64,000 bases of DNA from Pseudomonadales bacterium (GTDB lineage Bacteria; Patescibacteriota; Microgenomatia; UBA1400; PJMF01): positions 534,846 to 598,845 of the forward strand of contig JACKFW010000001.1 of the NCBI GenBank assembly GCA_020632265.1. The letters are read 5' to 3'. Positions within the stretch are counted from its first letter, which is position 1, and each line of letters starts with the position of its first letter. The notes under the pieces are model-generated. The model saw only the letters and a program-made list of their open reading frames with translations. It made no database searches and had not been told where the DNA came from. Below are positions 8,918-59,793 of this stretch, in pieces. A program made the position numbers and the translations under genes.

Positions 8918-9613
8918 GTGCCTTTAATTTTTCCCATAATAATCAAAAGAGTTGTTACACTCATTGTAGATATTATTTTCCCTTGTTTCTGTGTAAATTG
9001 TAACAAAATAGACACTTTACTTTGTAATAAATGTTTTGAAGAAATAGAATTTTATCTAAATTATCCAACAATTTCAATTAAAGAGTTATATTTTGACGAA
9101 GTCATAATTGCTTGTAAGTATTCCTCTGTATCAAAGAAATTAATTCACGAATTTAAATATAAAAGTGTAGTTAATATCAAAAATGTGATCGCTCAAATAA
9201 TATATCGAAGTACAAATTTTCCAAATTTAGAAATTATTATTCCGGTTCCAATACACAAAAAAAAATATAACCAAAGAGGTTTTAATCAAACTGAAGAAAT
9301 CTCAATTGAATTAGCGAAATTATCACATATTCCCACCTACAATTTTTTATCAAAAACCAAAGAAACTCAAAGCCAAATGTCAATTCAAAATAGAGAGAAA
9401 AGACTCAGTAATTTATCCAAAACATTTAGCATAAATAAAAATGTTGAAAATAATCTTCGTGAACTATATGCTTCCAAAAATATCAGCTTTCCAAAAACTG
9501 CTATTTTGATAGATGATGTTTTGACAACTGGAAGCACTCTTAATGAATGTGCGAAAGTGCTAAAAAATTATGGTTTTGAGAAGGTAATCGGTATTGTTTT
9601 TGCCAGTAAATAA
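8918..9613 (+). CDS. comFC: ComF-family phosphoribosyltransferase-domain protein (ComFC-like)
   Basis: N-terminal Cys4 zinc-finger-like segment (CFCVNCNK...CNKC) and a C-terminal PRTase motif (ILIDDVLTTGSTLNE). Confidence 0.65.
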   Translation: MPLIFPIIIKRVVTLIVDIIFPCFCVNCNKIDTLLCNKCFEEIEFYLNYPTISIKELYFDEVIIACKYSSVSKKLIHEFKYKSVVNIKNVIAQIIYRSTNFPNLEIIIPVPIHKKKYNQRGFNQTEEISIELAKLSHIPTYNFLSKTKETQSQMSIQNREKRLSNLSKTFSINKNVENNLRELYASKNISFPKTAILIDDVLTTGSTLNECAKVLKNYGFEKVIGIVFASK

Positions 9614-10210
9614 AATCGTATAAATTGTTTTTTCTGATTACTCAATTGTACCCAAATAGATCAACTATCTTTGTATATTACTTCAAAAAAACTAAAGCCA
9701 TTAATTATCAATATGATGTAATTTTTCAATTAAAATCTAGATATTTAATAAAAAAAGTGTATAATCTGATGGACATGGGGATGTATTGCTTTGACGTGAT
9801 ATGTACTTTAACATTTGCAGACCATCTTTGACTAAGAAAGATGTAAAACAGAGTCAAAAAATAATTGCAGATACAATTGCAACTAATGTTAAAAGCATGC
9901 TTACAGAGGTTAAATCCAATGTTGCTAGCTACTTAACACCAAATTACGCTTTCGTAGCATAATTCGGCATCAATTTAAATAATTTCATTGGCGTTTTTAA
10001 ACTTGATGATTCAACTTAAGTCAATGTGACGGGTTAGCATTCGTTTGTTGATGCAAACTTTAAGTAAAAATTGACAAAGATTGTGAAAAAAAGGTTTGTT
10101 TATTTTCCCATTTCACAGTAACAAAAACAAACTAAGTCTGTAGATAATGTTAGCTTGCTATTGCGGACACGAGGTCATTCCTCGTCATCTCCACAGATAC
10201 CTACTTATTG

Positions 10211-11008
10211 TTACCAATTGGTAAAATACTTAGAGTTTGAATGATTATTAGCAGCAATAATCCATTCACCGTCAATCCATTCAACCCAAACATTATAAGT
10301 TAAATAGTTTTTACTACCAAAAGTTACTATTTCCCCAACCCTTGTTCTTGAATCTTTAGGATTATAATTCTTATATTCAACATTCGCATTTCTCAAAAAA
10401 GTAGGTTTAATTAGAACTTGCAAGATTTGATATAAATGACTTATATCAATAATATTATGCTCAAATAATATCTTCGCAGCTTCTTGTAATAATTGATTAA
10501 TTGCTTCAGCAAAAGTTTTTCTTTTGATCTCCAAATCATCATTTGGACCTGACAAGAATACTTCTAATGCACTAATACCAGCTCCAACTCCTAGATCTGT
10601 TGAATTATCAGGAGTTTGTAGTTGATTATTTCTAATTTCTTCGTTTCGAACTAGAATTTCTAATTGTTCTTCAATTCTAGCAACAAAAGTATTTATGCTA
10701 GCTCGTCCAGATTGACGATTGTTCTCTTCCTGCCAACCGTCTAACAAAATATAACTTTCGCGACCATCTCGGTGTGTCAAATAAAGCGTAATTAAATGAA
10801 AACTGGGAAGTGTCTGTCCTAAATCAATTACAAATTGACTATCTGTATCAGTTGAACTTGCTCCATTAACCGCACTATTTACCGATACTCTGACTATTCC
10901 CATATTAACAAATTTTGATCTTCTCCTCATCAAAGCAATGAACAAATTCCTCTTTGTAAAATCGTTTTCTAACCTTAATTGATGTTCTTCAAATTCAGTT
11001 CTAGCCAT
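10211..11008 (-). CDS. Hypothetical protein (265 aa), no recognisable domain
   Basis: Long ORF with its own upstream region carrying tandem repeats. It is locally GC-richer than its neighbours. No family could be assigned by eye. Confidence 0.5.
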   Translation of the reverse strand: MARTEFEEHQLRLENDFTKRNLFIALMRRRSKFVNMGIVRVSVNSAVNGASSTDTDSQFVIDLGQTLPSFHLITLYLTHRDGRESYILLDGWQEENNRQSGRASINTFVARIEEQLEILVRNEEIRNNQLQTPDNSTDLGVGAGISALEVFLSGPNDDLEIKRKTFAEAINQLLQEAAKILFEHNIIDISHLYQILQVLIKPTFLRNANVEYKNYNPKDSRTRVGEIVTFGSKNYLTYNVWVEWIDGEWIIAANNHSNSKYFTNW

Positions 11009-11063
11009 ATTGAATTTCCTTAATATATAATTCGTTGGTACTTAAGATTCTATTCTAATCTTT

Positions 11064-11105
11064 AGATTCTTTTTACCCAATTATAGATTCTTTTTACCCA
11101 ATTAT
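11064..11105. repeat. Perfect 21-bp direct repeat x2 (AGATTCTTTTTACCCAATTAT) upstream of the 265-aa gene. A TAGCTTCTT x3 microrepeat lies at about 11208-11236.
   Basis: Read directly from the sequence. Confidence 0.8.
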
Positions 11106-11313
11106 TCCAGATATTATACACTATTTTTTGCAATTTTCAAAAAAAATAAAATCACTGATACAACATCATCCACAATACAGAAAGAATTTGACAATTGATT
11201 TTAGTTAGTTTCTTTAGCTTCTTTAGCTTCTTTATCTATTAACTTCATTTATAACTATCCTTGATAAAAGATATTCAAATAATTAATTCAGATAACTGCC
11301 AATTATATATTAT

Positions 11314-12354
11314 TTAAACATTCTTATTGATTTGATTGTTTTTAAGTTTAGAAACAGTTTTGCTAGCAACCCATACTAGTGGAATCCAAGTAATTGAATA
11401 TACTAAAACCCAGATTCCAAAATATCCAACAACCCTTAATAATTCTTTAAGTGAAGTCCAAGCTCTTAGAATTTCTTCTTTGATGGTTGGTCTAGCAGAT
11501 GGATTAAAATATCTTTCGCTATCCGCAGCTGTAATCGAAATTGAGGAGTATTCAACCTGCTGTTCAACTTGATCAAGGCTTTTTTCAGCAGCTGTAATTT
11601 GTTTTGTCAACCTATCAATTTCAATTTGAAATCTTCTCTTTTCAACTTCAGTTTTAGCATCTAACAAAGCAGCTTCTTTTAATGATTTTTGATCTAATAG
11701 AGCCTGAACGGTTTCTGTCGTACCTACCAACCTCCCAGTAATGTCACTTGCATCAATATTTTCATTCACAACTTTATCAACATTTTCAGTTACTCTTGAA
11801 GTTGCTTCCTCAAACTTTGCAACAGGAACTTTTACATACAAGTCTCCACTATTGTAATCTCCATTAGAAGAAATACTTGAATTTAACACTTTTCCATCAA
11901 TGCTTAAAAAGTATTCTTTCATTCCTCTCAAATAGCTAGGAACATCGTTTACTACAACAGAATGATATGAGGATTTTTGATAGACTCTATCATTAAGATA
12001 TAAATAATCATCAGCAAAATACGGAATTGGCATTGATCCCGTTGTGATCGAATCATTCATTTTATCTATGAGCATTGGCTCTGGCATTGGCTCTACAGGA
12101 AACTCATCTGAAACAGGAAAATCAGGACTTGGATATTGCATATAAGCATCAGTATCCCGTGTAGACTGATCCATACCTTGCATATACGGCTCCATGTCTT
12201 GCATACTCACAGCATCTTGGCCTCGCATACGACTAAAAGATGGCAATATTTGAGAATTTTTTAAGAAAGAAAATCTCGAGTTCATTGCAAATACAATTAA
12301 ACTTGTTACTACACCTAAAAATACCACTACAAAAAAAGTTTGTTTATTTTTCAT
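11314..12354 (-). CDS. Membrane-anchored protein with Met/Asp/Pro-rich low-complexity region, coiled coil and C-terminal TM hairpin (DUF4349-like architecture)
   Basis: N-terminal signal anchor (FFVVVFLGVVTSLIVFAM). Central coiled coil (EVEKRRFQIEIDRLTKQITAAEKSLDQVEQQ). C-terminal hydrophobic hairpin (VVGYFGIWVLVYSITWIPLVWVA). Confidence 0.4.
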   Translation of the reverse strand: MKNKQTFFVVVFLGVVTSLIVFAMNSRFSFLKNSQILPSFSRMRGQDAVSMQDMEPYMQGMDQSTRDTDAYMQYPSPDFPVSDEFPVEPMPEPMLIDKMNDSITTGSMPIPYFADDYLYLNDRVYQKSSYHSVVVNDVPSYLRGMKEYFLSIDGKVLNSSISSNGDYNSGDLYVKVPVAKFEEATSRVTENVDKVVNENIDASDITGRLVGTTETVQALLDQKSLKEAALLDAKTEVEKRRFQIEIDRLTKQITAAEKSLDQVEQQVEYSSISITAADSERYFNPSARPTIKEEILRAWTSLKELLRVVGYFGIWVLVYSITWIPLVWVASKTVSKLKNNQINKNV

Positions 12355-12458
12355 ATACTAGAAATTATATCAGATTCGATAATTATCTCAAATTTTTTAT
12401 AGATTTATTTTCAACATCATAAATAATAATAGTTCTGGCATTTTTTTTGAAAAAATAT

Positions 12459-14711
12459 TTAATTTTCAACTTTAGAATTTCTTAAATATTCCATGATTTT
12501 TCCAGAATTAACTTCTCTTGGTTTACTTCCTTGAGCAGGACCAACCATCCCTGCATCATATATTTGATCAAGAATTCTGGCAGCTCGATTATAACCGACA
12601 GAATATTTTCTCTGGATACTGGAAGAAGATCCTTTGCCAGTTTGAGCAACATATTTAACTACTTCATCAAATAAATCATCTCTATCAGAACTAACGGATC
12701 CAGAGCTACCCTTTTCCCCTGAAGCTTTATATTTATCAGTAACATCCTCAGAGTATTCAGGTTTCTGACCCTGAGCCTTAATAAATTCAATCATACTTTT
12801 AATTTCAACTTCAGATACAAAAGTGCCCTGAATACGACTTGGTCTAGATTGATCCGGAGGTATATAAAGCATGTCTCCTTTTCCAAGTAGTTTTTCTGCA
12901 CCTGGAGTATCAAGCACCACGCGCGAATCAGTCATACTTGAAACGTTAAAAGCAATTCGGGTAGGAATATTGGCTTTAATCAAACCGGTAATCACATCAA
13001 CAGATGGTCTTTGGGTTGCCAATACCAAATGAATTCCTACTGCACGAGCCATTTGAGCTATTCTTGTAACACTCTCTTCGACCTCTGAAGGAGCGTAAAG
13101 CATAATATCAGCCAATTCATCGATCACAATAACAATGCTTGGCATTGCAGCATGACCTGCGAGCTCATTATATCCAGCAATATTTTTAACTCCCACCTCA
13201 GCAAGTTGACGATATCTTTTATCCATCTCATGAGTTGCCCACTTCAAAGCTGAAACAACTTTTTTAGGATCTACAATAACTGGAGTTAATAAATGAGGAA
13301 TATCATTATATGCAGTAAGCTCTACTCGCTTTGGATCAACAAGAATGAACTTTACTTCATCTGGACTAGCTCTGAAAAGTATAGAACAGATAAATGTATT
13401 CACACATACGGACTTACCTGACCCAGTGGATCCAGCAATAAGTATGTGTGGCATTTGAGCAATATCTACTACTAATGGTTTTCCAGATACGTTTATTCCC
13501 AAAGCTACGGCTAATTTTGAAGGATGCTTTTTAAGAATTGGACTGCTGAGCATTTTTCTTAAAGTAACATATTGCAAAGAATAGTTAGGAACTTCAACGC
13601 CAACCAAGGACCTACCGGCGATTGGAGCTTCGATCCTTACTTGACCTCCCTTTGCAGCCAAAGCTAGAGCTAGATCAGTAGATAAACCAGTTAGTTTAGA
13701 AAGTTTAGTACCCTTAGCAATTTCAAGAGCATATTGAGTAACTGAAGGCCCGTAATTAGCCTCTTTAACTTCAGCTCTGATTCCAAATGATTCCAATGTT
13801 TCCTCAATAATATCTGCATTTTTATTAACATCTCCTCTGTCGGCTTTACCACCTTCTGAATTTGATAATAATGAAAGTGGTGGATATTCCCAAATCTTTT
13901 GTGTATTATTTGGAGTCATCAAATTCTGATCTAAATCACTGTTCACATCATCTTTGCCAATAATTTTTTCATCGCCTGATAATGCTATACCACTTGATTC
14001 ATTATCAGAAAATGCACCACCATCAACTCCCCCACTATTGATACTAAAAGAATCATTCTTATTTTTTCCCAGACTAAGACCAAGTTTTGGCAGTTTAAAA
14101 CCACCACTTGTTTTAATTTCAGCTTTATCAAATGAGAAATTCGAATCTTCCTTAACCTTAGATTTTCTATTCAAATTTAACTGTGAAAAAAATTCAGCAA
14201 TTTCATGAATAGACATCTGCGTGATGATCAATATCCCAATCATCATCAGGGCAAAAAATACAACATACGTTCCCATTGGGGTAATCAATGCTGAAAAATT
14301 GGCCGAAGTATCAAAACCAATTTTACCAGTCTTAAAAAATCCCAACCAACCAAGCATTATTAACAAAGTTCCAAGCAAAACATGAGGTTTTGACCACATC
14401 CATTTTGTTCTGAACATGACCATTCCTGAAGAAATAAATACAAATGGTAAAAACAAAAGAGAAGTTCCAAAACTTCTAACTAGATATTTGTTGAGATTCG
14501 AAAGCAAAGCACCCTGACCTGTCATGGAAACAATCACAATTAAACCTATTGAAATTAGGATTATAGCCACAACCGAATGGATTGTCTCTGTTCTAATTTT
14601 TAGTTTTAGTGGTTTTCTTTTTCTGCTTCTGCCCATACTTTTTATAAAAAAACTCAACAGCAATAATACTTTATTTATTATAGGATACACTACATTCCTC
14701 TTTGTTGGCAA
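12459..14711 (-). CDS. ftsK: DNA translocase FtsK/SpoIIIE
   Basis: N-terminal TM segments, a linker, then an FtsK motor with Walker A (GSTGSGKSV), a Walker B region (IVIVIDELADIM) and a C-terminal gamma-like winged-helix domain. Confidence 0.9.
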   Translation of the reverse strand: MPTKRNVVYPIINKVLLLLSFFIKSMGRSRKRKPLKLKIRTETIHSVVAIILISIGLIVIVSMTGQGALLSNLNKYLVRSFGTSLLFLPFVFISSGMVMFRTKWMWSKPHVLLGTLLIMLGWLGFFKTGKIGFDTSANFSALITPMGTYVVFFALMMIGILIITQMSIHEIAEFFSQLNLNRKSKVKEDSNFSFDKAEIKTSGGFKLPKLGLSLGKNKNDSFSINSGGVDGGAFSDNESSGIALSGDEKIIGKDDVNSDLDQNLMTPNNTQKIWEYPPLSLLSNSEGGKADRGDVNKNADIIEETLESFGIRAEVKEANYGPSVTQYALEIAKGTKLSKLTGLSTDLALALAAKGGQVRIEAPIAGRSLVGVEVPNYSLQYVTLRKMLSSPILKKHPSKLAVALGINVSGKPLVVDIAQMPHILIAGSTGSGKSVCVNTFICSILFRASPDEVKFILVDPKRVELTAYNDIPHLLTPVIVDPKKVVSALKWATHEMDKRYRQLAEVGVKNIAGYNELAGHAAMPSIVIVIDELADIMLYAPSEVEESVTRIAQMARAVGIHLVLATQRPSVDVITGLIKANIPTRIAFNVSSMTDSRVVLDTPGAEKLLGKGDMLYIPPDQSRPSRIQGTFVSEVEIKSMIEFIKAQGQKPEYSEDVTDKYKASGEKGSSGSVSSDRDDLFDEVVKYVAQTGKGSSSSIQRKYSVGYNRAARILDQIYDAGMVGPAQGSKPREVNSGKIMEYLRNSKVEN

Positions 14712-14732: not shown

Positions 14733-16397
14733 TTACACGTCCATAAAGACGCATACAATCATTGGTTCTCTTCTGATAATTTTATAAAGTCTTCTGGAAA
14801 TTCTTTTTTCGACCAAAATCTTTAGCATTTCAAGTTTGGTTTTTTTTCTTAATTCTTCTGAAACCACCCTTGCTGTTTCAGTTTTAATAAATTGAACAAC
14901 ATCTTCGGCTTCTTTCATAAAAACAAAACCGCTTGAAACAACTTCAATTTTTTTCAATTCCAGATTGCCTCTCACCCTTGGGATAATGATAGTAACTATA
15001 CCAGCCTGTCCTAAAGAACGCCTATCTTTTAACACTTTTGGTCCCACATCTCCAACACCCAAGCCATCAATAATTTGAGGTTTTAAATTGATTTCATCTA
15101 CAACTGAAAACTCACGGTTTTCAAATCCAAGAACCTCACCTGTATCTGGGATTAAAACATGATTCTCATCAAAACCTAATTTTGAAGCAACCAATTCAAA
15201 GAATTTGAATCTATGTCGATCATCTCCCCCAATTGGCATAACATATTTGGGTTTTATCAAACTTAAAAGTTCTTGTTGCTCTGGAGCACTAGCATGCCCT
15301 GACTTGTGTAAATCAGGCATAACAGCTGGATAAACAACATGAATTCTATTTCTACAAAGTTCGTTAATTGCCCCATAGAAAGTTAGTTGATTTCCTGGAA
15401 TGGCATCTGCTGAAAATACAACCGTATCGCTTTTTTTAATTCTTAATATTCTATGTTCGCCATATATTGCTCGAATCAATGAAGATCCTTCTTGTCCCTG
15501 ACTACCAGCAACAATAACGCATAATTTTTTGTCATCAATATCCTCAATATGCTTTTTATCAATCTGCATTCCTTCTGGGATTATTAATTTTCCTAACCTG
15601 GTGGCAACTTCAACATTTTGCTCTACTGATCTACCAATAAACACTACTTTACGTTGATATTTTTGAGCCGCATTGATAGTTTGTTGGATTCTATGAATAT
15701 GCGAACTCATTAAAGTCATTACCAACTTTCCTTGAGTTTCTGCCATCACTCTCTCGATTGCAGGACCTGTTAATGATTCAGATTCTACCCAATCTGGATA
15801 TTCAACTCTAAGGCAATCAATTAATAAACAAAGTACATTTTGATTGGCCAGCTGAGATATGTGTTCGAGATCGGACACTATTCCATCCACCGGGTTTGGA
15901 TCTAACTTGAAATCACTACCGTGATAGATTAATCCTTCTGGAGTTGAAATTAATATATGCCTGGTATCAGGAACTGAATGTGTAACAGGAAAAAATCTCA
16001 CTGAAAAATTATTGCCTATTCGAACCTCGTTTGTATCGTTAACAACTGTTACAAATCTGCCAATTTTGCCATCTCTCATTCTTTGTTCTGCAAAACCAGC
16101 CGTCAATGGTGATCCAAAAATTGGAAATTCAGGCAGGTCGGAAAGCAAATAAGGTAATGCCGCAATATGATCATCATGACCATGAGTTAAAACCATTCCA
16201 ACAATTTCCTTTCCCTCGTCAATCTTTTTTAGCAAATAAGAAATATCAGGAATTAATATATCAACACCTGGCATATAAGAATCTGGAAATCCAATTCCAC
16301 AATCCACAATCAGGATTTCATTTTCATATTCGTACAAAAACATATTTTGGGTTACTTGACCCATTCCACCTAGTGGAATAATTTTCAATTTAGACAT
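14733..16397 (-). CDS. rnj: Ribonuclease J (metallo-beta-lactamase/beta-CASP RNase)
   Basis: HGHDDHIAALPYL metal-binding motif, beta-CASP region and C-terminal domain. About 554 aa, typical for RNase J. Confidence 0.9.
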   Translation of the reverse strand: MSKLKIIPLGGMGQVTQNMFLYEYENEILIVDCGIGFPDSYMPGVDILIPDISYLLKKIDEGKEIVGMVLTHGHDDHIAALPYLLSDLPEFPIFGSPLTAGFAEQRMRDGKIGRFVTVVNDTNEVRIGNNFSVRFFPVTHSVPDTRHILISTPEGLIYHGSDFKLDPNPVDGIVSDLEHISQLANQNVLCLLIDCLRVEYPDWVESESLTGPAIERVMAETQGKLVMTLMSSHIHRIQQTINAAQKYQRKVVFIGRSVEQNVEVATRLGKLIIPEGMQIDKKHIEDIDDKKLCVIVAGSQGQEGSSLIRAIYGEHRILRIKKSDTVVFSADAIPGNQLTFYGAINELCRNRIHVVYPAVMPDLHKSGHASAPEQQELLSLIKPKYVMPIGGDDRHRFKFFELVASKLGFDENHVLIPDTGEVLGFENREFSVVDEINLKPQIIDGLGVGDVGPKVLKDRRSLGQAGIVTIIIPRVRGNLELKKIEVVSSGFVFMKEAEDVVQFIKTETARVVSEELRKKTKLEMLKILVEKRISRRLYKIIRREPMIVCVFMDV

Positions 16398-16430
16398 AAA
16401 ACTTTCTTTATAAATACTTTAGTTACAATT

Positions 16431-16480
16431 TATTGCCTTAGATATATTGCCTTAGATATATTGCCTTAGATATATTGCTT
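16431..16480. repeat. 14-bp tandem repeat TTGCCTTAGATATA x3 (plus a degenerate fourth copy) immediately upstream of rnj
   Basis: Read directly. Each unit carries -35-like TTGCCT and -10-like TAGATAT/TATATT hexamers. Confidence 0.8.
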
Positions 16481-16508
16481 TAATAATAAATTATTTTTTA
16501 ATAACAAT

Positions 16509-17348
16509 TTAATACCTACTATTCTTTAATTTACTTGATACTTTTGGCTTTGCAAATACATTGATAACTTTGTTATCACCCCAACCTACATGTAAGAAGA
16601 ATTCTCTTAAACGGTTGGTCTTTTCATTATTTTCAAATGTTGAACCTGCCACAACCGAAGCAATAAACGTTGCAAACATAAACCAATACATTCCATTTGA
16701 AATATTAAATTTTGGATCAAAAATAAAATAAATCACTATATGTACTAAAAGAAATAAAGCCAAAAATAGCTTCATTAGCCTCATAAAATTTCCTTGAAGC
16801 GCGTCAGAATTCCAAATTGCTAAAAATAATAAAATTCCAAACAAAAATCCAGAACCAAAAACTAGATAGAATTGAAATTTAGTTGCCGTCGCTAACTCAA
16901 GGGGAACTAAAACATTGACGACGGATAAAAATGTTCCCAAAACCATACCACCTCCCCAAATGATGATGTGAGTCCACCACAAATGAAAATATTCCGACAG
17001 ATGAAAAAGATCGAATTCGGGATCATGATGTCTCTTAATCCAAAAAGTTTTTGTTAAGGAATGAATTGAAATTGCAGCAAATACGATAAATGACATCACG
17101 CTAAAAATAGTATCCACAACAAATAAATCTGTCACAGAAAGACTCAATTCTAATTCATTTCTTAATATATAAAAAATGAATGATTTCATCCAAACAAACA
17201 TTGTTGGAGCAATTATAAATAAATAAACAAACTGGACTAAATCTAGTTTAAATATTTCCTTTTTGTTATTTTGAAATCTATAAATAAAAAAACCAAATAC
17301 AGAAGTAATTAAAGGGATGGCAAGTAAAAAAATTTTCATAATAAACAA
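16509..17348 (-). CDS. Polytopic integral membrane protein, unknown function
   Basis: Around 8 hydrophobic helices spread through the protein. No recognisable motifs. Confidence 0.5.
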   Translation of the reverse strand: MFIMKIFLLAIPLITSVFGFFIYRFQNNKKEIFKLDLVQFVYLFIIAPTMFVWMKSFIFYILRNELELSLSVTDLFVVDTIFSVMSFIVFAAISIHSLTKTFWIKRHHDPEFDLFHLSEYFHLWWTHIIIWGGGMVLGTFLSVVNVLVPLELATATKFQFYLVFGSGFLFGILLFLAIWNSDALQGNFMRLMKLFLALFLLVHIVIYFIFDPKFNISNGMYWFMFATFIASVVAGSTFENNEKTNRLREFFLHVGWGDNKVINVFAKPKVSSKLKNSRY

Positions 17349-17414
17349 TTATTCATTTTAACATATGTTGCCTGCTTAACTATTGATAGATTCTCTGTTA
17401 TAACTTTTAATAAT

Positions 17415-18074
17415 ATGCCGATTTCAATTCTCACAAACTCAGCACATGGAAAAATTGTTTCTAATAAGATTCATAAATCTTCAATTTTTGAACATATAAT
17501 TCATAAATGCATGATGAAAAAAGCTAGCGAATCTTACAATCACGTAAAGGATTTTATAAAAAAATCAGATAAAATCCTTGATGTTGGTTTGGGAAGTGGA
17601 ACTTTTTCCAGTTATCTTAAAAATAAGAATTACAAAATGTTTAGCGTAGATGTTGTCAATATGTCTCTTTACAAAGATATTCAACCAACTATTTATAACG
17701 GGAAAAAACTCCCATATAAAGACGATGAATTTGACATAGCTCTTTTAATCAGTGTGTTGCACCACTGTGGCAAAAATAAACAAAATTTAGAAGTTCTAAA
17801 AGAAACTATGAGAGTTTCTAAAAGAGTGATAATAATCGAAGATTCATTTAGAAATGAATTGGAAAGAAAAGTTGTATCTGCAATGGATCAATTTGCGAAC
17901 TGGGAATTTTGGAAGCATCCATATCTTACTAACAACCAGTGGTTTAAATTTATTAATAGAAATCATTGGCATACTGTCTTTGCAAAACAATATTCCCAAC
18001 TAGCTTTTGGAGTATTTTATACACATTATTGCATGTATGTTTTAGAAAAACATAATTCTAAAAATTCAAATTAG
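17415..18074 (+). CDS. Class I SAM-dependent methyltransferase
   Basis: Motif I (ILDVGLGSGTFSSYL), followed by an acidic motif-II region and a motif IV-like segment (LLISVLHH). Confidence 0.6.
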   Translation: MPISILTNSAHGKIVSNKIHKSSIFEHIIHKCMMKKASESYNHVKDFIKKSDKILDVGLGSGTFSSYLKNKNYKMFSVDVVNMSLYKDIQPTIYNGKKLPYKDDEFDIALLISVLHHCGKNKQNLEVLKETMRVSKRVIIIEDSFRNELERKVVSAMDQFANWEFWKHPYLTNNQWFKFINRNHWHTVFAKQYSQLAFGVFYTHYCMYVLEKHNSKNSN

Positions 18075-18758
18075 TCAAAATAATTGTTCAATTATTGAAT
18101 TTTGAATGTCATCAAATTGCGTTTGCTTTTCAATCCAATCAATAGCTTTTGGTATTTTTTTAAAATCATTAATAAACGCTTGTCTAACTGTTCCATTTCT
18201 CAAACCTGCGGCTGGGTGGTACATTGGTAAAATAAATAAATGATTATTGTTAAACCACTTCATCTTATAAAGCCTACCATGAACTTTTGATATCTTGGCA
18301 TCAAACAAAAATTTTGCCATTCCAAATCGACCCAAGGTAACCACCAGCTTTGGATTAACAATTTCAATTTCTCTATCTAAAACTTTTTTATATGCTTCAA
18401 TTTCTACTGGAAAAGGATCTCTATTTTCTGGAGGTCGAACTTTAACTATATTTGTTATATACACCTCTGATTCAAGAATACCTACTTGCACAAGAGTTTG
18501 ACGAAAAAACTTTCCAGAGCGACCTACAAATGGCCTACGCTCTACAGTTTCATAATAGCCAGGGGCCTCACCAATAAACAATATTTTTGCATCTTCAAAC
18601 CCTTCTCCAGGAATAATGTCAGATGGTTTTTCGGCAAGGGGAAATTTTTTATAATTATTGATCACATTTTGATATAAATCCAAAAGTAAATGTTTTTTGT
18701 GTTCTAAAACTGATAGATTTTTATCTAAAAGGGTCTTTGGCATACAAGATTTTATCAA
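18075..18758 (-). CDS. Uracil-DNA glycosylase, family 4 (UdgA type, Fe-S)
   Basis: Motif A (GEAPGYYE), RPFVGRSGK and the C-terminal HPAAGLR region typical of family-4 UDGs. Confidence 0.8.
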   Translation of the reverse strand: MIKSCMPKTLLDKNLSVLEHKKHLLLDLYQNVINNYKKFPLAEKPSDIIPGEGFEDAKILFIGEAPGYYETVERRPFVGRSGKFFRQTLVQVGILESEVYITNIVKVRPPENRDPFPVEIEAYKKVLDREIEIVNPKLVVTLGRFGMAKFLFDAKISKVHGRLYKMKWFNNNHLFILPMYHPAAGLRNGTVRQAFINDFKKIPKAIDWIEKQTQFDDIQNSIIEQLF

Positions 18759-18834
18759 AAAATATCTAAATAGTAATATTTAAGACACAGGTTTAATAAT
18801 AATATTTATTATACAAGTTGAATAACTTAAAAAT

Positions 18835-19896
18835 TTAATATTGAGGCAGAAAGATGTTTCTATTTTCTAAAGTAATTACTACTTCAGGATAACCTTTTTC
18901 AATAATTATTCTAGCGGCTTTTCTAACAGCACCCTGTAAAGTTCTTCCCAAAGTTCTAATTCCAGCATCGAATCCCAATGGTCTAGTAACAACTGGCCAG
19001 ACATCCTCATTAATAATAAATTGTTCGGGATTTAATCCAGCATCTTTAAGTAATCCTGGCAATATATATTTTTTTGCAATAACAATTTTTTCATGATCAG
19101 TATAAGAAGGCATAGAAATTCTTTCCATACGATCCATAACGGCTGTAGCAATTGCTGTAGTATTATTAGCTGTGGCTAAAAAAATTGCATGTGATAAATC
19201 GACTGGAAAATCAATATAGTTATCTCGAAAAGCATGATTTTGTTTGGGATCTAATAATTCTACCAAAACACCCATAATATCTTTATTTGCTTCCGAACTG
19301 CTTCTATCAATTTCGTCCAATAGAATGACTGGATTTCTAACCCCTGCCTCGCAAATTCCCTTAATGACTCTTCCTGGTTCAGAACCTAAAATCAACCTTG
19401 AATTACCTCTAAGCTCTGCAGCAGATCCCATTCCACCAAAAGGAATTCTTACCAGTTTTCTTCCTAATGCTTCCGATAAAGATACTGCAAATGTTGTTTT
19501 TCCAGTTCCAACAAGACCAACTAACAACAAAATTGGAGCTCTAAAATCATCAAGAGTATTTGGATTTTGACTTCTCAATTTTAAGACAGCCACATATTCT
19601 AAAAATCTATTTTTAACATCTTGCATACCAAAATGATGTTTTTCAAAAATAGCTTTAGTTTTTTCAAGATCTAATGTATCTTGGGTTTCGTTTTCCCAGG
19701 GAACTTGTAAAACCCACTCAATATATTTTGAAACCTTTTCATATTTTTCATCATAGCTACCTAAGGCCACGCTTCTTTCCAGTGACACAATATCTTTATC
19801 AACCTTACTTCTCATCTCTGCAGGAAGCTTGGATAAAGAAACTTTTGATTTGAGCTCATCAATTTCTTGCTCTAGTATTTGTTTATAATCTGTCAT
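18835..19896 (-). CDS. Lon-derived AAA+ ATPase lacking both the N-terminal substrate-binding domain and the C-terminal S16 protease domain
   Basis: Collinear with the central region of Lon. It has a coiled-coil/helical segment, then VLQVPWENE...KNRFLEYVAV and Walker A (LLLVGLVGTGKTT). LVRIPFGGMGSAAELRGNSRLILGSEPGRV resembles the Lon GGxxDxAEIRGHRRTYIGxxPG block. Walker B (ILLDEID), sensor-1 (ATAN) and MDRMERI follow. The ORF ends about 60 aa after the AAA+ lid. The flanking sequence contains no protease domain. Confidence 0.75.
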   Translation of the reverse strand: MTDYKQILEQEIDELKSKVSLSKLPAEMRSKVDKDIVSLERSVALGSYDEKYEKVSKYIEWVLQVPWENETQDTLDLEKTKAIFEKHHFGMQDVKNRFLEYVAVLKLRSQNPNTLDDFRAPILLLVGLVGTGKTTFAVSLSEALGRKLVRIPFGGMGSAAELRGNSRLILGSEPGRVIKGICEAGVRNPVILLDEIDRSSSEANKDIMGVLVELLDPKQNHAFRDNYIDFPVDLSHAIFLATANNTTAIATAVMDRMERISMPSYTDHEKIVIAKKYILPGLLKDAGLNPEQFIINEDVWPVVTRPLGFDAGIRTLGRTLQGAVRKAARIIIEKGYPEVVITLENRNIFLPQY

Positions 19897-19917
19897 TTAT
19901 TTTTCTTTTTTTCAATT

Positions 19918-20844
19918 CTAATTATGCACTTTTATCTGGTCTATTGTCAATAAACCCGGTTTAGCACCTACTTGTTGAATAACTGATACAGCATTTCTTT
20001 TACCCCACTGACAACATTCTTCAATATTTTTTTTCTTTAAATAAGCAGTGACATAGCCCACGGCAAATGCATCTCCTGCGCCAGTATCATCTAAAGATTC
20101 AACTTCTCCTGATATAAATTCAGTATTTATTTGGCCTTCAACATAAACTTTGCCACCTTTTTTACCATTTGTGACAATTATTTGTTTCACATTGGCAAAA
20201 ATCTCTTGATGATATTTTTCTACTAGTTTCCATTCTTCATAATTAACAAATAGTAGTTCACATGGTATGTCTGAAAAAATAAGTTTATTTTCGTTTATTA
20301 ATGTTAACTCTTTTTTTCCAGGATTCCATGAAATTTTTTTGTTAGCCAATTTGAGAACCGAAAAAATATATTTAAGTGTATTGAGTCTTCCGGAAATACT
20401 AGAAAGGTGAATCCAATCTGCTCTAGAAATTGTTTCTTTTGGAATATCTTCTGGATCTAACATCGCAGAAGCCCCTCTATGAACCATAACAGTCCGACCA
20501 CCATCCTTGCCAACCAAAATTATTGAACCACCAGTTTTTTCTTGTTTTTCACTAATAACAAGATTGGTTGAAACATATTCCTTCTTCAAATCGTCTAAAA
20601 TAATTTTGGCAAAAGTGTCTCTACCAATTTCAGTGATAATTCCAGTTCTATAGCCCATTCGCGAAAAACCAACGGCTGTGTTGCTGCCACCACCACCAGT
20701 TCGCAGTAAATATTCTTCTACATCAATCTTTGATCCATAGGAAAAGCATATCTGAACATTATTTTCTGAATTACTGAAATCAAAATTTTTTGATTTGATA
20801 AAACTATCAATCAAACTTGATCCAATTGTTATAACGTCATACAT
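19918..20844 (-). CDS. PfkB-family carbohydrate or nucleoside kinase (ribokinase-like fold)
   Basis: An N-terminal GG dipeptide region and the C-terminal DTGAGDAFAVGYV anion-hole motif. Confidence 0.8.
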   Translation of the reverse strand: MYDVITIGSSLIDSFIKSKNFDFSNSENNVQICFSYGSKIDVEEYLLRTGGGGSNTAVGFSRMGYRTGIITEIGRDTFAKIILDDLKKEYVSTNLVISEKQEKTGGSIILVGKDGGRTVMVHRGASAMLDPEDIPKETISRADWIHLSSISGRLNTLKYIFSVLKLANKKISWNPGKKELTLINENKLIFSDIPCELLFVNYEEWKLVEKYHQEIFANVKQIIVTNGKKGGKVYVEGQINTEFISGEVESLDDTGAGDAFAVGYVTAYLKKKNIEECCQWGKRNAVSVIQQVGAKPGLLTIDQIKVHN

Positions 20845-22749: not shown

Positions 22750-22860
22750 ACTACTAATTTTTTAATTAATTGTGCAGATTGCTGTTTATAAAGAACAACA
22801 ATTATGACTCAAATTTCGAAACTCAAATCTTCTCTAGAGTCTGATTTCAGTGCTGGTTTG

Positions 22861-22957
22861 AAATCAATTTCACAGTGCTAATTTGAGATCAATTTCACAA
22901 CGCTAATTTGAGATCAATTTCACAACGCTAATTTGAAATCAATTTCACAGCGCTAAT
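22861..22957. repeat. Tandem direct repeat of about 25 bp (ATCAATTTCACAACGCTAATTTGAG) x about 4, flanked by near-identical CTAGAGTC(T/C)GAT(T/C)TCAG segments
   Basis: Read directly. Units differ at 1-2 positions and there are no unique spacers. Confidence 0.85.
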
Positions 22958-26918: not shown

Positions 26919-27035
26919 AATAGGTGAAGTGTAACAAATCTGGAATTAAATGGGAATACTTATACATCTTTTTATAATAATTAATATATTTTAAAAATAT
27001 ACTTTAAAAATATATTTAAAAAATATACTTTAGAC

Positions 27036-34247: not shown

Positions 34248-34304
34248 ATATCATTCAGAAATTATAAAATCTCTTTTCTTTTGTTTATTTAGCTATATTC
34301 TTGT

Positions 34305-34790
34305 TTATTTAGCTGTATTCTTAATTATGTCTGTTACAAACTTCCCTTTGTATCCACCAAAATCATATTGATCGAGTTCTCCAATAGAAATCCATTTATA
34401 ATCAATATGTTCGTGGCTCAAGACCACATTGTTAGGATCAAAGTCTGAACTCAAAATAACTTTCCAACCTAAAATAACAGCAAACACTTGTCGCTTTGCT
34501 TCAAAAAATGTAGAGAAATATACCAAATTGTCCTGGTCTAATTTATCAGGCGACAATTCTATACCTGTTTCTTCAAATACTTCTCTAGTGATGTCTTCTT
34601 TGTGCAAATCCTCAATATTTTCTTTAATTTCAGTCGGCCATTCAGAATTACCACCAGGCAAATCCCAACAAAGAGGTCTTGTATGAGAACTTTCGTCTCG
34701 TAATAAAATTAAAATCTTATCTTCATTAATTAATACAATTTTTTGAAGTAATTTAACATCATCAGTAAGCTGATGGGATCTTGTGCTCAT
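34305..34790 (-). CDS. NUDIX hydrolase
   Basis: Nudix box GGNSEWPTEIKENIEDLHKEDITREVFEETGIEL (GX5EX7REVxEEtGi). Confidence 0.7.
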   Translation of the reverse strand: MSTRSHQLTDDVKLLQKIVLINEDKILILLRDESSHTRPLCWDLPGGNSEWPTEIKENIEDLHKEDITREVFEETGIELSPDKLDQDNLVYFSTFFEAKRQVFAVILGWKVILSSDFDPNNVVLSHEHIDYKWISIGELDQYDFGGYKGKFVTDIIKNTAK

Positions 34791-36295: not shown

Positions 36296-36337
36296 GTGGG
36301 TTGATTTCAGTGGGCTGATTTTAGTGGGTTGATTTGT
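36296..36337. repeat. 13-bp tandem repeat AGTGGG(T/C)TGATTT x3 upstream of the NUDIX-sufC gene string
   Basis: Read directly from the sequence. Confidence 0.75.
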
Positions 36338-36989
36338 CTAGTACAATTTTACAGCAACAGATATCAATTCCGTCTCTTACATCTTTGCCTTTTTACCTTC
36401 TAGTTGCCCCATCAGCTCTCTCAGCATCGCACGAAGGTCCAGTTGTTTGATTATAATTTTGATAATCTCGACCTGATAAATGATAAGATTGATTATTGCC
36501 AGTTGTGATATTATCACCGGGTTCGGGAGTACCAAAAACTTCAGCTGAACCTCCCCAGCCGGCAAGTGCCAAGCTTGCAAGAGCAATCGTAGTGAGAAAA
36601 CTACTAGTTTTGCCCACAACTCCCGGGTCTTCGACTCTGTTCTCTATTCGAGTCAATAATAAGGCACACGATAAAAGAGTTAGAAATGTTTTAACATAAG
36701 GAGAAATTTTTTCGCTACCACTTTCCTTATGAACTTGATTTAAATAATAAATAGCTTCTAAAAAACCATTTTCTTTCCACAGAAAAAAAAAGAAGGAGAA
36801 ATCATTTCACCTCTTTGAGGTAGCATACAAGCTTTATATTCTATATATGCTTCCTCTAGAAATCGCTCACAAATATTCGAATGCATATATATATGTATTA
36901 TACTATATCACGCTCATTCTACCCACAATCATTTATCTCTTGAAATCCATACTCAAATTCATTTTAATTTTATTTAGTGAATTTTAGAA

Positions 36990-37074
36990 CTTCGCTAGAA
37001 ACACAACCAATTTTAAGACTTAGCTAGAAGCACAACCAATTTTAAGACTTAGCTAGAAGCACAACCAATTTGAG
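36990..37074. repeat. 29-bp tandem direct repeat x3 (CTTAGCTAGAAGCACAACCAATTTTAAGA) in an intergenic region. The units are contiguous, so this is not a CRISPR array.
   Basis: Read directly. Copies differ at 1-3 positions. Confidence 0.85.
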
Positions 37075-37693: not shown

Positions 37694-37814
37694 CTATTCT
37701 TTCTAATATAAATCAAAAAAATAATATCACTAAAAAAATAATATATAGTATTAATTAAAAAATATTAATTAATATATTAACAAAATTTACAGAAAAATTT
37801 AAAATTCTGAATTG

Positions 37815-46184: not shown

Positions 46185-46234
46185 ATTTTATCCAATTACT
46201 ATAATTTTATCCAATTACTCTAAATTTTATTCTA

Positions 46235-47521
46235 TTACTCTAAAAAAGATGATGAATCCTTTTGTGCCATTTCAGCTTCAAACTTCTCAACTCTATCTGC
46301 TAATATTTTTTCTTGTTCATCGCCTAATTCAGCTTCCAACCATTTATTTTTAAATCTTGATAAATCAGCAAGAGTTGTAAGTTTATTCATTACTAAAAAT
46401 TCTCTAGTATCATCAATTAACCCTTCGAAAGTATCGATTTCATATTCTTCTTTACCGGTTGCGCGAGATTCAATACTACCTTCGGATGACTTGATGGTGA
46501 TTTTATAACCAGTAAGCTTTGCAGCTAGTCTAACATTTTGTCCACCTCTGCCAATAGCCAATGATAACTGATCGTCAGGAGCAACTACTTCTGCAGACAT
46601 CTCATCTTTATTAACGGTAATTTTCAAACCTTCTGCTGGAGCCAAAGCGCCTTGAATAAGAAGTCGAGGATCCTCAGAAAATAAAATAATGTCTAGTTTC
46701 TCATTATTGAGTTCTCTGATCACTTCTTGAACACGAATACCTCGTTGACCTACACATGATCCAACTGGGTCAACTCCATCTTGGGTTGATCTAACAGCTA
46801 ATTTTGTTCTAACACCAGCTTCTCTAGCAATTAATGCAATTTCCACTGAACCTGCGGCAATTTCTGGAACTTCTCTTTCAAAAAGCTTGGCCACTAACTC
46901 TTTTGCAGCTCTTGAAGCAATAATTTTTCTTCCTCTTGGAGTTTCTCTTATTTCTTTGATGAAAACGGTAATTCTATTATTCATTTTATAAAATTCGCCA
47001 CGCATCTGTTCTTCTGGAGGCATGTATCCTTGACCCCTACCAAGATCTAGAATAACAGATCTGCCATCCATACGTAATATTTGTGCGGCAACTACTTCAC
47101 CAATTTTACCCTGGTAATCCTCGATAACTTTATCTCTCTCAGATTCGCGAATTTTTTGCAAAATTACTTGTTTAGCAGTTTGAGCTGCAATGCGACCAAA
47201 TCCAGCAGGAGTTACGTCTTGTGCCTTTTTTTCATCCCATTTTATAATTTCTCCAGTTTCTTCATCTTTTTCAATAACTGGACACTTAAAAATTGTTGAC
47301 TCACCACTATTTTCATTTAATTCAACAAAGTAATATGATTCATCTTCAAGATGACCAAACTGTTTTCGATATGCAGAAACCAAAGCTTGTCTAATAGCTT
47401 CGTAAATTGATGCTGGTTCGATATGTCTTTCATTTGCAATCTGATTGATTGCTGCTGCAAATTCAGTTCTCACTATCTTTGAACTTGGTGTTTTTGATGT
47501 TTTAGCCATATTTTTCTCCAA
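46235..47521 (-). CDS. nusA: Transcription termination/antitermination factor NusA
   Basis: NusA N-terminal domain, S1 and two KH domains (FGRIAAQTAKQVILQKIRESERD, GRGGQNVRLAAKLTGYKI) and a C-terminal acidic extension. Confidence 0.9.
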   Translation of the reverse strand: MEKNMAKTSKTPSSKIVRTEFAAAINQIANERHIEPASIYEAIRQALVSAYRKQFGHLEDESYYFVELNENSGESTIFKCPVIEKDEETGEIIKWDEKKAQDVTPAGFGRIAAQTAKQVILQKIRESERDKVIEDYQGKIGEVVAAQILRMDGRSVILDLGRGQGYMPPEEQMRGEFYKMNNRITVFIKEIRETPRGRKIIASRAAKELVAKLFEREVPEIAAGSVEIALIAREAGVRTKLAVRSTQDGVDPVGSCVGQRGIRVQEVIRELNNEKLDIILFSEDPRLLIQGALAPAEGLKITVNKDEMSAEVVAPDDQLSLAIGRGGQNVRLAAKLTGYKITIKSSEGSIESRATGKEEYEIDTFEGLIDDTREFLVMNKLTTLADLSRFKNKWLEAELGDEQEKILADRVEKFEAEMAQKDSSSFLE

Positions 47522-59743: not shown

Positions 59744-59793
59744 AATTTCTTTCTTGAAGAACATTTTATCATTCTTTTATAAATAATAATTTC

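Follow-up and report, generated by a model that had tools for sequence, protein, structure and literature searches.

Organization of the region between ftsK and comFC

The region between comFC and ftsK in the window (the whole 64,000-nt stretch of DNA that was analyzed) consists of a conserved envelope-protein gene of the DUF4349 family, one orphan gene, hereafter referred to as X265, and an overlooked tmRNA gene. A preliminary description had presented it as a two-gene island of unknown function, and the main outcome of the present analysis is a correction of that picture: the region is very probably not such an island but a conserved chromosomal neighborhood of Patescibacteria (Microgenomates/Pacebacteria-like) with one extra gene. 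The gene order is RNase J, FtsK, DUF4349, tmRNA, and comFC, with X265 as the single addition, and this content is mostly ordinary for the genome of an uncultured Patescibacteria bacterium. The sequence of the locus is 100% identical in two independent assemblies.

The two minus-strand open reading frames of the preliminary description, encoding 265 and 346 aa, were found at 10211–11008 (X265; MCB9813294.1, H6772_02720) and 11314–12354 (the DUF4349 gene), respectively. The identities given there for the flanking genes were also supported by Pfam matches. On the left side, the ComF/ComFC-like phosphoribosyltransferase gene (8918–9613, plus strand) encodes a protein with a C-terminal phosphoribosyltransferase domain (Pribosyltran, E = 3e-7; 30.3 bits against a cut-off of 26.3); its match to the zinc ribbon DZR_2 was weak (19.9 bits, under the cut-off of 27). 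On the right side, the gene for the FtsK DNA translocase (12459–14711, minus strand) encodes the alpha (FtsK_alpha, PF17854), motor (FtsK_SpoIIIE, PF01580, E = 5.5e-63), and gamma (FtsK_gamma, PF09397) domains, each of which scored far over its cut-off.

Conservation of the neighborhood in related genomes

The order mem279, RNase J, FtsK, DUF4349, a variable interval, tmRNA (−), comFC (−), and PMT/TPR (−) recurs among the relatives L001, L002, L004, L005, L008, L011, L014, and L017. The DUF4349 gene lies directly downstream of ftsK, at 50–58% identity, in L001–L005, L008, L009, L011, L014, and L017. Comparison of the synteny between comFC and ftsK gives a divided result: the DUF4349 and tmRNA genes are conserved there, while X265 is absent from the relatives.

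In the preliminary description, both protein genes and a neighboring stretch regarded as free of open reading frames were taken to be one horizontally acquired accessory insertion. Three observations are in line with this: X265 is missing from the relatives, the size of the ftsK–comFC interval varies, and a few of the more distant relatives (L007, L010, L012, and L015) lack the DUF4349 gene. Nevertheless, this reading is already contradicted by the synteny data and is almost certainly wrong. In the nearest relatives the DUF4349 gene is in place and its identity tracks the divergence of the neighbor genes, and the tmRNA gene is located next to comFC in most of the relatives. Moreover, the GC content, GC3, and codon usage of both protein genes are typical of the window, and repeats of the kind regarded as island features occur genome-wide. 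The stretch supposed to be free of open reading frames holds the conserved tmRNA gene. What survives of the accessory claim concerns X265, which is absent from all 17 relatives and occupies a variable slot; the gene for the 346-aa protein, in contrast, is core, syntenic content, since most of the related Patescibacteria genomes have it immediately behind ftsK. Its constant position after ftsK across an order-level clade provides a testable hint of a role in division or in the envelope.

The tmRNA gene

The tmRNA gene (ssrA; 9777–10196, plus strand) was detected with the Rfam covariance model RF00023 by cmscan (76.2 bits against a gathering score of 47; E = 8e-28). The match is full length (model positions 1–374) and includes the tRNA-like acceptor and T-arm. 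As in known tmRNAs, a resume codon, GCA, is present, coming here after AAAAUAAUU, and the tag has a hydrophobic end, YAFVA, followed by a stop codon. The cmscan alignment and the sequence place the probable tag frame at 9867–9962: GCA at 9867 is followed by 31 codons, ADTIATNVKSMLTEVKSNVASYLTPNYAFVA, which end with ...PNYAFVA, and then by TAA at 9960–9962. The equivalent frame of the L004 tmRNA ends with ...PNYALVA, and the tmRNA sequence is highly conserved in L001, L002, L004, and L005. Two features differ from known tmRNAs: one is that the putative tag is long (31 codons), and the other is that the CCA is incompletely encoded, the gene ending with ...CUCCACA. ARAGORN missed this gene and reported only three tRNAs in the window, but this miss carries less weight than the Rfam match and the conservation. 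A sigma-70-like promoter match (TAGATA-16-TATAAT; 10 of 12 positions in the consensus scan, a consensus match only) is found upstream of the gene at 9738–9765 on the plus strand. In the automated annotation, the tag frame was called as a gene for a 53-aa protein. A candidate pairing between the tmRNA and the DUF4349 mRNA (20-nt complementarity) was rejected, as it was not conserved in eight relatives.

The DUF4349 protein

Neither of the two proteins had been assigned to a family in the preliminary description; this stood for the 265-aa protein and failed for the 346-aa protein, which matched PF14257 (DUF4349) with E = 5.8e-21 and 75.3 bits (cut-off, 27.7) and is already annotated as a DUF4349 protein at NCBI. 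In the alignment, residues 131–329 were placed on profile positions 9–210 of 213. With identities of 38–59%, 25 homologues were found, and a precomputed PF14257 assignment exists for all 26 homologues examined for it. Thus, the protein is a near end-to-end match to the family, and it also has the usual anchor/tail layout, in which the domain is preceded by a signal or anchor at the N terminus and followed by a transmembrane tail at the C terminus (PMC10924467). Among the candidates chosen as Tat-dependent tail-anchored proteins in that paper is a DUF4349 protein of Methylobacterium with the same layout (PMC10924467). Beyond this prediction of a tail-anchored architecture, the literature on DUF4349 contains only a single incidental report of a mutation.

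The membrane anchor, the Met/Asp/Pro-rich segment, and the coiled coil that had been proposed for the protein were borne out by the hydrophobicity profile and the AF2 model. A hydrophobic anchor at the N terminus is followed by a linker rich in Pro, Asp, and Met (residues 31–117), then by a coiled-coil hairpin, and finally by a hydrophobic segment at the C terminus; the starts of the hydrophobic windows fall at residue 3 and at residues ~305–313. The model (pLDDT mostly 81–97; blocks at residues 121–340) predicts an alpha/beta domain into which a coiled-coil hairpin is inserted, a disordered linker, and helices at residues 4–30 and 291–344. In the C-terminal part, where a transmembrane hairpin had been postulated, a single hydrophobic stretch of ~24 residues (~305–331) was found within one long helix, so that the model points to a tail anchor rather than a hairpin. 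The protein would accordingly be tethered at both ends, with its bulk probably extracytoplasmic. When the model was compared with PDB structures by Foldseek, no match below E = 0.1 was obtained, and only a faint ACT/NikR-like ferredoxin-fold resemblance was seen.

The upstream region of this gene is not long and repeat-bearing, as had been described, but measures 104 bp and carries no repeat. It contains a sigma-70-like promoter match at 12364–12391 on the minus strand (TTGAGA-16-TATAAT with TG; 11 of 12 positions in the consensus scan, consensus match only), from which the gene could be transcribed independently downstream of ftsK.

The X265 gene and its product

X265 is annotated as a hypothetical protein at NCBI. 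It is the only gene in the segment 10197–11313 (~1.1 kb), which extends from the tmRNA 3′ end to the stop codon of the DUF4349 gene. It had been described as GC-richer than its surroundings, and horizontal acquisition had been suggested on this basis. However, its GC content is 0.318 (z = −0.48 versus the 53 open reading frames of the window), which is higher than that of comFC (0.266) and of the intergenic DNA and lower than those of the DUF4349 gene (0.338) and ftsK (0.360). Relative to the same frames, the z values for GC3 and codon usage are −1.3 and +1.0, respectively. The GC content and codon usage of X265, a real gene, are native, and the compositional argument for horizontal acquisition is lost.

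An alternative is that X265 is a spurious or decaying open reading frame without a function. Its lack of close homologues, its annotation as a hypothetical protein, and the low confidence of its structure model (single-sequence AF2, pLDDT 37.6, unusable) would fit this. Even so, such a reading is scarcely credible, and the reality of the gene follows from its length, codon pattern, initiation signals, and homologues. For a window this rich in AT, the chance expectation for an open reading frame of 265 codons is ~1.6e-6, and no frame in shuffled sequences exceeded 163 codons. The pattern GC1 > GC2 > GC3 and the codon usage are as in real genes. A Shine-Dalgarno-like AAGGA, read from the sequence, is located 7 nt upstream of the ATG (11016–11020, minus strand), and a sigma-70-like promoter match (TTGAAA-16-TATAAT; 11 of 12 positions in the consensus scan, consensus match only) is located at 11113–11140 on the same strand; such promoter-like matches are no commoner than chance (19 found versus 15.8 ± 3.9 in shuffles). 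Finally, a patterned domain of ~100 residues is kept in four homologues. X265 has its own promoter-like site, along with a Shine-Dalgarno sequence and a 5′ leader of ~100 nt.

X265 is a soluble, cytoplasmic protein of ~30 kDa that has no hydrophobic segment. Our best guess, held with low confidence, is that it may be a dispensable accessory or conflict-type protein and not a housekeeping factor.

Tandem repeats upstream of X265

Perfect direct repeats had been reported upstream of each of the two genes and regarded as island features. Both arrays, however, lie in the 305-bp region upstream of X265. The perfect tandem duplication of a 21-bp unit (TAGATTCTTTTTACCCAATTA, two copies) was confirmed by TRF at 11063–11105 (score 86, 100% matches). 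It lies between the promoter-like site, which it closely follows, and the X265 start, 55 bp further on; the 21-mer is unique in the window, and two adjacent copies were found against an expectation of 0.01 chance matches. The second array is also present, in the spacer between the DUF4349 gene and X265, but in another form than the three perfect copies described: it consists of 3.3 copies of a 9-bp unit (TTAGCTTCT) at 11205–11234 (TRF score 53, 95% matches). A third TRF array, at 12072–12094, is inside the DUF4349 coding sequence. The predicted fold of the X265 5′-UTR, including the 21-bp repeats, was no better than that of shuffled sequences (z = −0.47), and a permissive-threshold Rfam search found nothing in the intergenic region between X265 and the DUF4349 gene.

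The density of tandem arrays is 3.1 per 10 kb in the window versus 0–0.9 in 14 other loci, and ~12 intergenic arrays occur 1–115 bp upstream of other genes of the window. Because similar arrays are thus found upstream of about a dozen other genes, the repeats are no signature of an island. This strain has a general tendency to duplicate short intergenic stretches in tandem, and the repeats are an ordinary outcome of it rather than recombination scars.

The X265 family

No match to X265 was found in Pfam, NCBIfam, PHROGs, PADLOC, or the PDB sequences, nor with recombinase models. An exhaustive HMMER search of ~15 billion sequences yielded only four distant relatives, which likewise matched nothing in these curated libraries and no defence, toxin, or phage model; for the family, no tblastn match was obtained in the phage or plasmid collections. 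Back-translated scans of metagenome and viral contigs with X265, the family alignment, and the pair P0031/P0032 also gave no match. A word-indexed homology search with X265 returned no match, itself included; an exact look-up showed that X265 is present in the searched collection under a 114-aa fragment as the cluster representative. Judging from these sequence searches, X265 and its four relatives appear to form a tiny, undescribed, and very rare family with five known members.

The five proteins have a common conserved hydrophobic/charged pattern. In X265, a conserved N-terminal domain of ~100 residues, in which the motifs DG..(x)..GWxEE...SGxAS..F..RI occur, is followed by a variable helical middle and by a small beta-rich C-terminal domain that two of the four relatives also have. 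Like the ORFans of the CPR (lineage-restricted hypothetical genes), X265 has no match in curated libraries and is restricted to metagenome-derived genomes, and, since hypothetical genes are abundant in Patescibacteria genomes, nothing in these findings will surprise specialists. X265 differs from those ORFans in two respects: one is that it is not a strict singleton, since a conserved N-terminal domain can be defined from its four distant relatives, and the other is that a tRNA gene or a tRNA-3′-end-like repeat is found near three of these four.

The X265 homologues are found in unrelated genomic contexts. P0030 is located between the tRNA-Arg and tRNA-Pro genes, with the 3′ end of the latter 132 bp from its stop codon. 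Since its neighbors are ordinary chromosomal genes such as those for MreB, NDK, and ComEC, the accessory reading may not extend to the whole family. P0032 and P0031 each have a ~40-nt repeat ~90–120 bp downstream, the left half of which resembles a tRNA-Ser 3′ end, and P0032 is ~430 bp from a tRNA-Ser gene. The proximity of the family to tRNA and tmRNA genes gives a small lead on gene acquisition in the reduced genomes of uncultured Patescibacteria.

Origin of X265

The interval between the DUF4349 stop codon and the tmRNA 3′ end differs greatly among the relatives, ranging from 4 bp to 6.8 kb. In L004, it is an empty site of 34 bp with a terminator hairpin inside. It measures 343 bp in L001, 626 bp in L002, and ~1.5 kb in L014 and L017. 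The larger intervals contain genes: a toxin-antitoxin-like pair (from a reading of the ORF sequences) abutting the tmRNA in L011 (3.9 kb), ABC transporter and MFS genes in L008 (4.3 kb), and F420-ligase-like, alpha-2-macroglobulin, and Memo genes in L005 (6.8 kb). X265 was found in none of the 17 relatives examined (tblastn up to E = 50; blastn), and its 305-bp upstream region is missing from all of them as well.

In a tree based on RNase J and FtsK, the window is sister to (L002,(L004,(L003,L001))), with L005 and L008 outside. From this placement and the absence of X265 from the relatives, one gain on the window lineage is the most parsimonious history, and the X265 segment would have been acquired there in an interval of fast turnover. 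X265 might instead be ancestral and have been repeatedly lost, or have diverged past recognition, in the relatives. The distant homologues on other metagenomic contigs, which indicate that the family predates the strain, and the fully native composition agree with such a history, which is nevertheless quite unlikely. At least three independent losses would be required on the tree, the L004 spacer has just 34 bp, and the homologues are in unrelated genomic contexts. In addition, neither protein- nor DNA-level comparison revealed any trace of X265 in the L001 and L002 spacers, and no remnant was detected in the spacers of the relatives (tblastn, E = 50; blastn, word size 7).

Genomic islands integrate at the 3′ ends of ssrA or tRNA genes, as does CP4-57 at the E. 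coli ssrA. X265 could be the remnant cargo of a small element that entered the tmRNA 3′ end by site-specific integration and later lost its integrase and distal att repeat through decay. As in those islands, a lineage-specific gene, polymorphic in its presence among related genomes, lies immediately beside the tmRNA 3′ end (a gap of 15 bp is left between this end and that of X265, the two being convergent) within an interval that differs among the relatives, including the toxin-antitoxin-like pair of L011; furthermore, X265 family members elsewhere (P0030, P0031, and P0032) also face tRNA-type 3′ ends. Unlike those islands, the insert is a single gene of ~1.1 kb, and there is no integrase, att duplication, or compositional anomaly to support site-specific integration. 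No integrase or recombinase was found in the interval of the window or in the slot of any relative, and the tmRNA 3′ end is not duplicated in the window: its best match, CATCATCCACAATAC at 11164–11178 (score 18), was equalled in 223 of 500 shuffles. In the eight relatives with a measurable interval, no att-type match to the tmRNA 3′ end exceeded chance. The cargo in the slots of the relatives consists largely of ordinary metabolic and transport genes, and the composition and codon usage of X265 are native. On balance, we consider this origin unlikely, and the single gain in a fast-turnover interval remains our preferred reading.

A more speculative proposal is that the X265 family marks undescribed, integrase-less, single-gene cassettes of Patescibacteria inserting beside tRNA-type 3′ ends (those of tRNA, tmRNA, and tRNA-3′-end-like repeats), and that X265 is one of them with its distal repeat eroded. 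We regard this as a long shot. Repeated motifs, which would be expected on both sides of an integron-like cassette, are lacking around X265 in the window, and only P0032 and P0031, both distant relatives, have a flanking repeat. The model case for such cassettes would be the array in L085, where single small open reading frames, oriented either way, are separated by four copies of a ~40-nt tRNA-Ser-3′-end-like repeat, up to a terminal tRNA-Ser gene.

Gene layout between comFC and ftsK

In the AT-rich window (GC = 0.327), two minus-strand ORFs were found between the gene for a ComF-like phosphoribosyltransferase (8918–9613, +) and ftsK (12459–14711, −), as the preliminary description had stated: one (10211–11008) encodes a 265-aa protein, referred to as X265 hereafter, and the other (11314–12354) encodes a 346-aa protein. 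The two genes had been taken, together with an ORF-free stretch, for an accessory insertion, and neither protein for a member of an assignable family. This picture of a two-gene island was borne out in part: it holds for X265, most probably a lineage gain, which is without a library match. The 346-aa protein, in contrast, matches PF14257 (E = 5.8e-21) over almost the entire model, already bears the NCBI name DUF4349, and is a core DUF4349 protein encoded at a syntenic position. The ORF-free stretch is a full-length tmRNA gene (9777–10196, +; Rfam, 76.2 bits versus a gathering score of 47), which was missed by ARAGORN.

Gene turnover between ftsK and the tmRNA gene

Relatives were gathered by an FtsK scan of species-representative genomes, which returned Patescibacteria/Microgenomates. 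The order mem279, RNase J, FtsK, DUF4349, a variable interval, tmRNA, comFC, and PMT/TPR is seen in loci L001, L002, L004, L005, L008, L011, L014, and L017. The interval between the DUF4349 gene and the tmRNA 3′ end is 34 bp in L004 (a terminator hairpin only), 343 bp in L001 and 626 bp in L002 (no ORF of note in either), 1,117 bp in the window (X265 and its upstream region), about 1.5 kb in L014 and L017 (two genes), 3.9 kb in L011 (including a toxin–antitoxin-like pair adjoining the tmRNA, judged from ORF sequences read by eye), 4.3 kb in L008 (ABC transporter, MFS), and 6.8 kb in L005 (F420-ligase-like, alpha-2-macroglobulin, Memo). In L015, which is without DUF4349, ftsK and the tmRNA gene are separated by only 4 bp. 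An extra gene of ~420 aa lies between ftsK and DUF4349 in L001 (12205–13473) and L002 (12219–13469); the L001 copy has no match in Pfam. This gene is absent from L003 and L004, though L001 and L003 share 95% identity in RNase J and FtsK, and adds a second case of presence/absence polymorphism to the neighbourhood of X265. These interval sizes and contents and this polymorphism mark the ftsK–tmRNA interval as a local hotspot of gene turnover, in which neither the relatives nor the window showed an integrase or a transposase.

The pair in L011 (16432–16977) consists of ORFs of 90 and 87 aa directly adjoining the tmRNA 3′ end, the position held by X265 in the window; by eye, their sequences suggest a Phd/YefM-type antitoxin and a RelE/ParE-type toxin. 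The cargo of L005 includes a 1678-aa alpha-2-macroglobulin-like protein (15015–20051) with Hint/intein-type matches (PT-HINT, Vint, Hom_end_hint) between the bait region and the A2M domain. Several titles among L005–L009, L012, and the NCBI record of the window read ‘Pseudomonadales bacterium’ or ‘uncultured Pseudomonadales’. These look like taxonomic mislabels, because gene content and FtsK/RNase J similarity point to Pacebacteria/Microgenomates.

X265 and its distant relatives

X265 is a real gene. ORFs of its length are expected by chance at about 1.6e-6, the longest ORF in shuffles has 163 codons, the codon positions follow GC1 > GC2 > GC3, and an AAGGA Shine–Dalgarno sequence and a promoter-like site matching 11 of 12 positions are found upstream. 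The gene had been described as richer in GC than the DNA around it, but its composition is native (GC z = −0.48, GC3 z = −1.3, codon usage z = +1.0). The product (MCB9813294.1, hypothetical protein) has no hydrophobic segment and no match in Pfam, PHROGs, NCBIfam, PADLOC, PDB sequences, or phage or plasmid records. Four distant relatives were found when 1.84 billion representatives were searched exhaustively with HMMER: P0029 (237 aa, E = 4.7e-8), P0030 (260 aa, E = 1.1e-4), P0031 (259 aa, E = 3.7e-4), and P0032 (292 aa, E = 5.4e-4). All five proteins have an N-terminal domain of ~100 residues in common, with invariant residues including D81, W92, E95, S100, G101, A103, F108, R111, and I112 (X265 numbering), and the C-terminal beta-rich segment also occurs in P0029 and P0030. 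None of the five matches any library searched. Our guess, made with low confidence, is that X265 acts in the cytoplasm as a dispensable accessory or conflict-type protein; it is based on how sporadically the gene is distributed, its place in the hotspot, the toxin–antitoxin-like cargo of L011 in the same slot, and its solitary, self-promoted organisation.

X265 is absent from all 80 FtsK loci searched. The RNase J and FtsK tree groups the window as the sister of the L001–L004 clade, with L005 and L008 outside, and the most parsimonious history has X265 gained once, on the branch leading to the window. The position of X265 adjoining the tmRNA 3′ end pointed to an ssrA-type island, that is, site-specific integration next to this end. 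P0030 is sited between tRNA-Arg and tRNA-Pro, P0032 lies ~430 bp from tRNA-Ser, and downstream of both P0032 and P0031 is a ~40-nt repeat with a left half similar to a tRNA-Ser 3′ end; these contexts near tRNA-type 3′ ends are suggestive. However, the X265 interval contains no integrase, X265 bears no compositional signal, and the tmRNA 3′ end is not duplicated nearby (the best match was equalled in 223 of 500 shuffles; the relatives were likewise negative). We retain the ssrA-type island as an unlikely alternative, and a cassette-type mechanism, the novel case, has a low probability.

In the locus carrying P0032 (L085), the ~40-nt repeat, TTGCGGGGAGCATGGGATGAAGTTGGAACTTTGGTGA, occurs in four copies of one orientation (223–262, 601–640, 1396–1435, and 2498–2537), with single small ORFs, on either strand, lying between them, P0032 among these. 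At the end of the array lies a tRNA-Ser gene (2805–2890, −), whose 3′ end, in reverse complement, is similar to the left half of the repeat. The motif, which has no match among Rfam families, also follows P0031 in another genome (L083, 1017–1044). This layout resembles a cassette array or a set of tandem att remnants.

Tandem repeats

Perfect direct repeats had been placed upstream of each gene. The repeats exist, as a perfect 21-bp × 2 duplication (11063–11105) and a 9-bp × 3.3 array (11205–11234), but both lie in the one 305-bp spacer between the DUF4349 gene and X265, upstream of the latter; the region upstream of the DUF4349 gene is only 104 bp and carries no repeat. No further copy of the 21-mer is present in the window (0.01 chance matches expected), and the X265 leader including it folds no better than shuffles. 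When TRF arrays with a period of at least 9 and a score of at least 50 were counted, the window was found to hold ~20 (3.1 per 10 kb), versus 0–0.9 per 10 kb in 14 other loci, related and unrelated, the closest relatives included. Of these, about a dozen are in non-coding DNA (15% of the window), 1–115 bp upstream of gene starts, that of RNase J included. The units are 13–29 bp in 2–4 copies and differ in sequence between sites (e.g., 16431–16482, 18769–18825, 22857–22957, 26983–27032, 34281–34322, 36296–36335, 36980–37071, 37704–37780, 46185–46243, and 59779–59821). Given this density, the arrays near X265 belong to a pattern found throughout the strain. Those at 11063 and 11205 (and 16431 in L081, a contig identical to the window locus) are reproduced in two independent assemblies covering them.

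The DUF4349 protein and the tmRNA

Among 25 homologues of the DUF4349 protein (38–59% identity), conservation begins at about residue 109, while the Pro/Asp/Met-rich linker (residues 31–108) is variable. For the domain as a whole, no similar solved structure was found, and no function is given in the literature. The alignment-based AF2 model (pLDDT mostly 81–97, blocks 121–340) has an N-terminal helix (residues 4–30), a disordered linker, an alpha/beta domain with an antiparallel coiled-coil hairpin inserted at 206–268, and a single long C-terminal helix containing one hydrophobic stretch of ~24 residues. The two terminal helices, the latter with its hydrophobic stretch, predict a protein anchored at both ends, the bulk of which is presumably outside the cytoplasm. 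This layout agrees with the tail-anchored architecture described for one DUF4349 protein (PMC10924467).

The tmRNA sequence is strongly conserved in the relatives, and the similarity ends directly past its 3′ end. A 20-nt stretch of the tmRNA (10087–10106, AAAAAAGGUUUGUUUAUUUU) is complementary to codons 2–8 of the DUF4349 mRNA (12331–12350), with 19 Watson–Crick pairs and one G·U, and no other site in the 64-kb window matches it with at most 3 mismatches. As eight relatives do not conserve the pairing, it is probably a low-complexity coincidence. The cmscan alignment places the resume codon GCA at 9867, from which the tag would comprise 31 codons and end in ...PNYAFVA. This is unusually long; the tags of the relatives are similarly long and end in PNYA(L/F)VA. 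The tag frame (9801–9962, +; 6499–6660 in L081) has been annotated automatically as a 53-aa protein gene in that identical contig.
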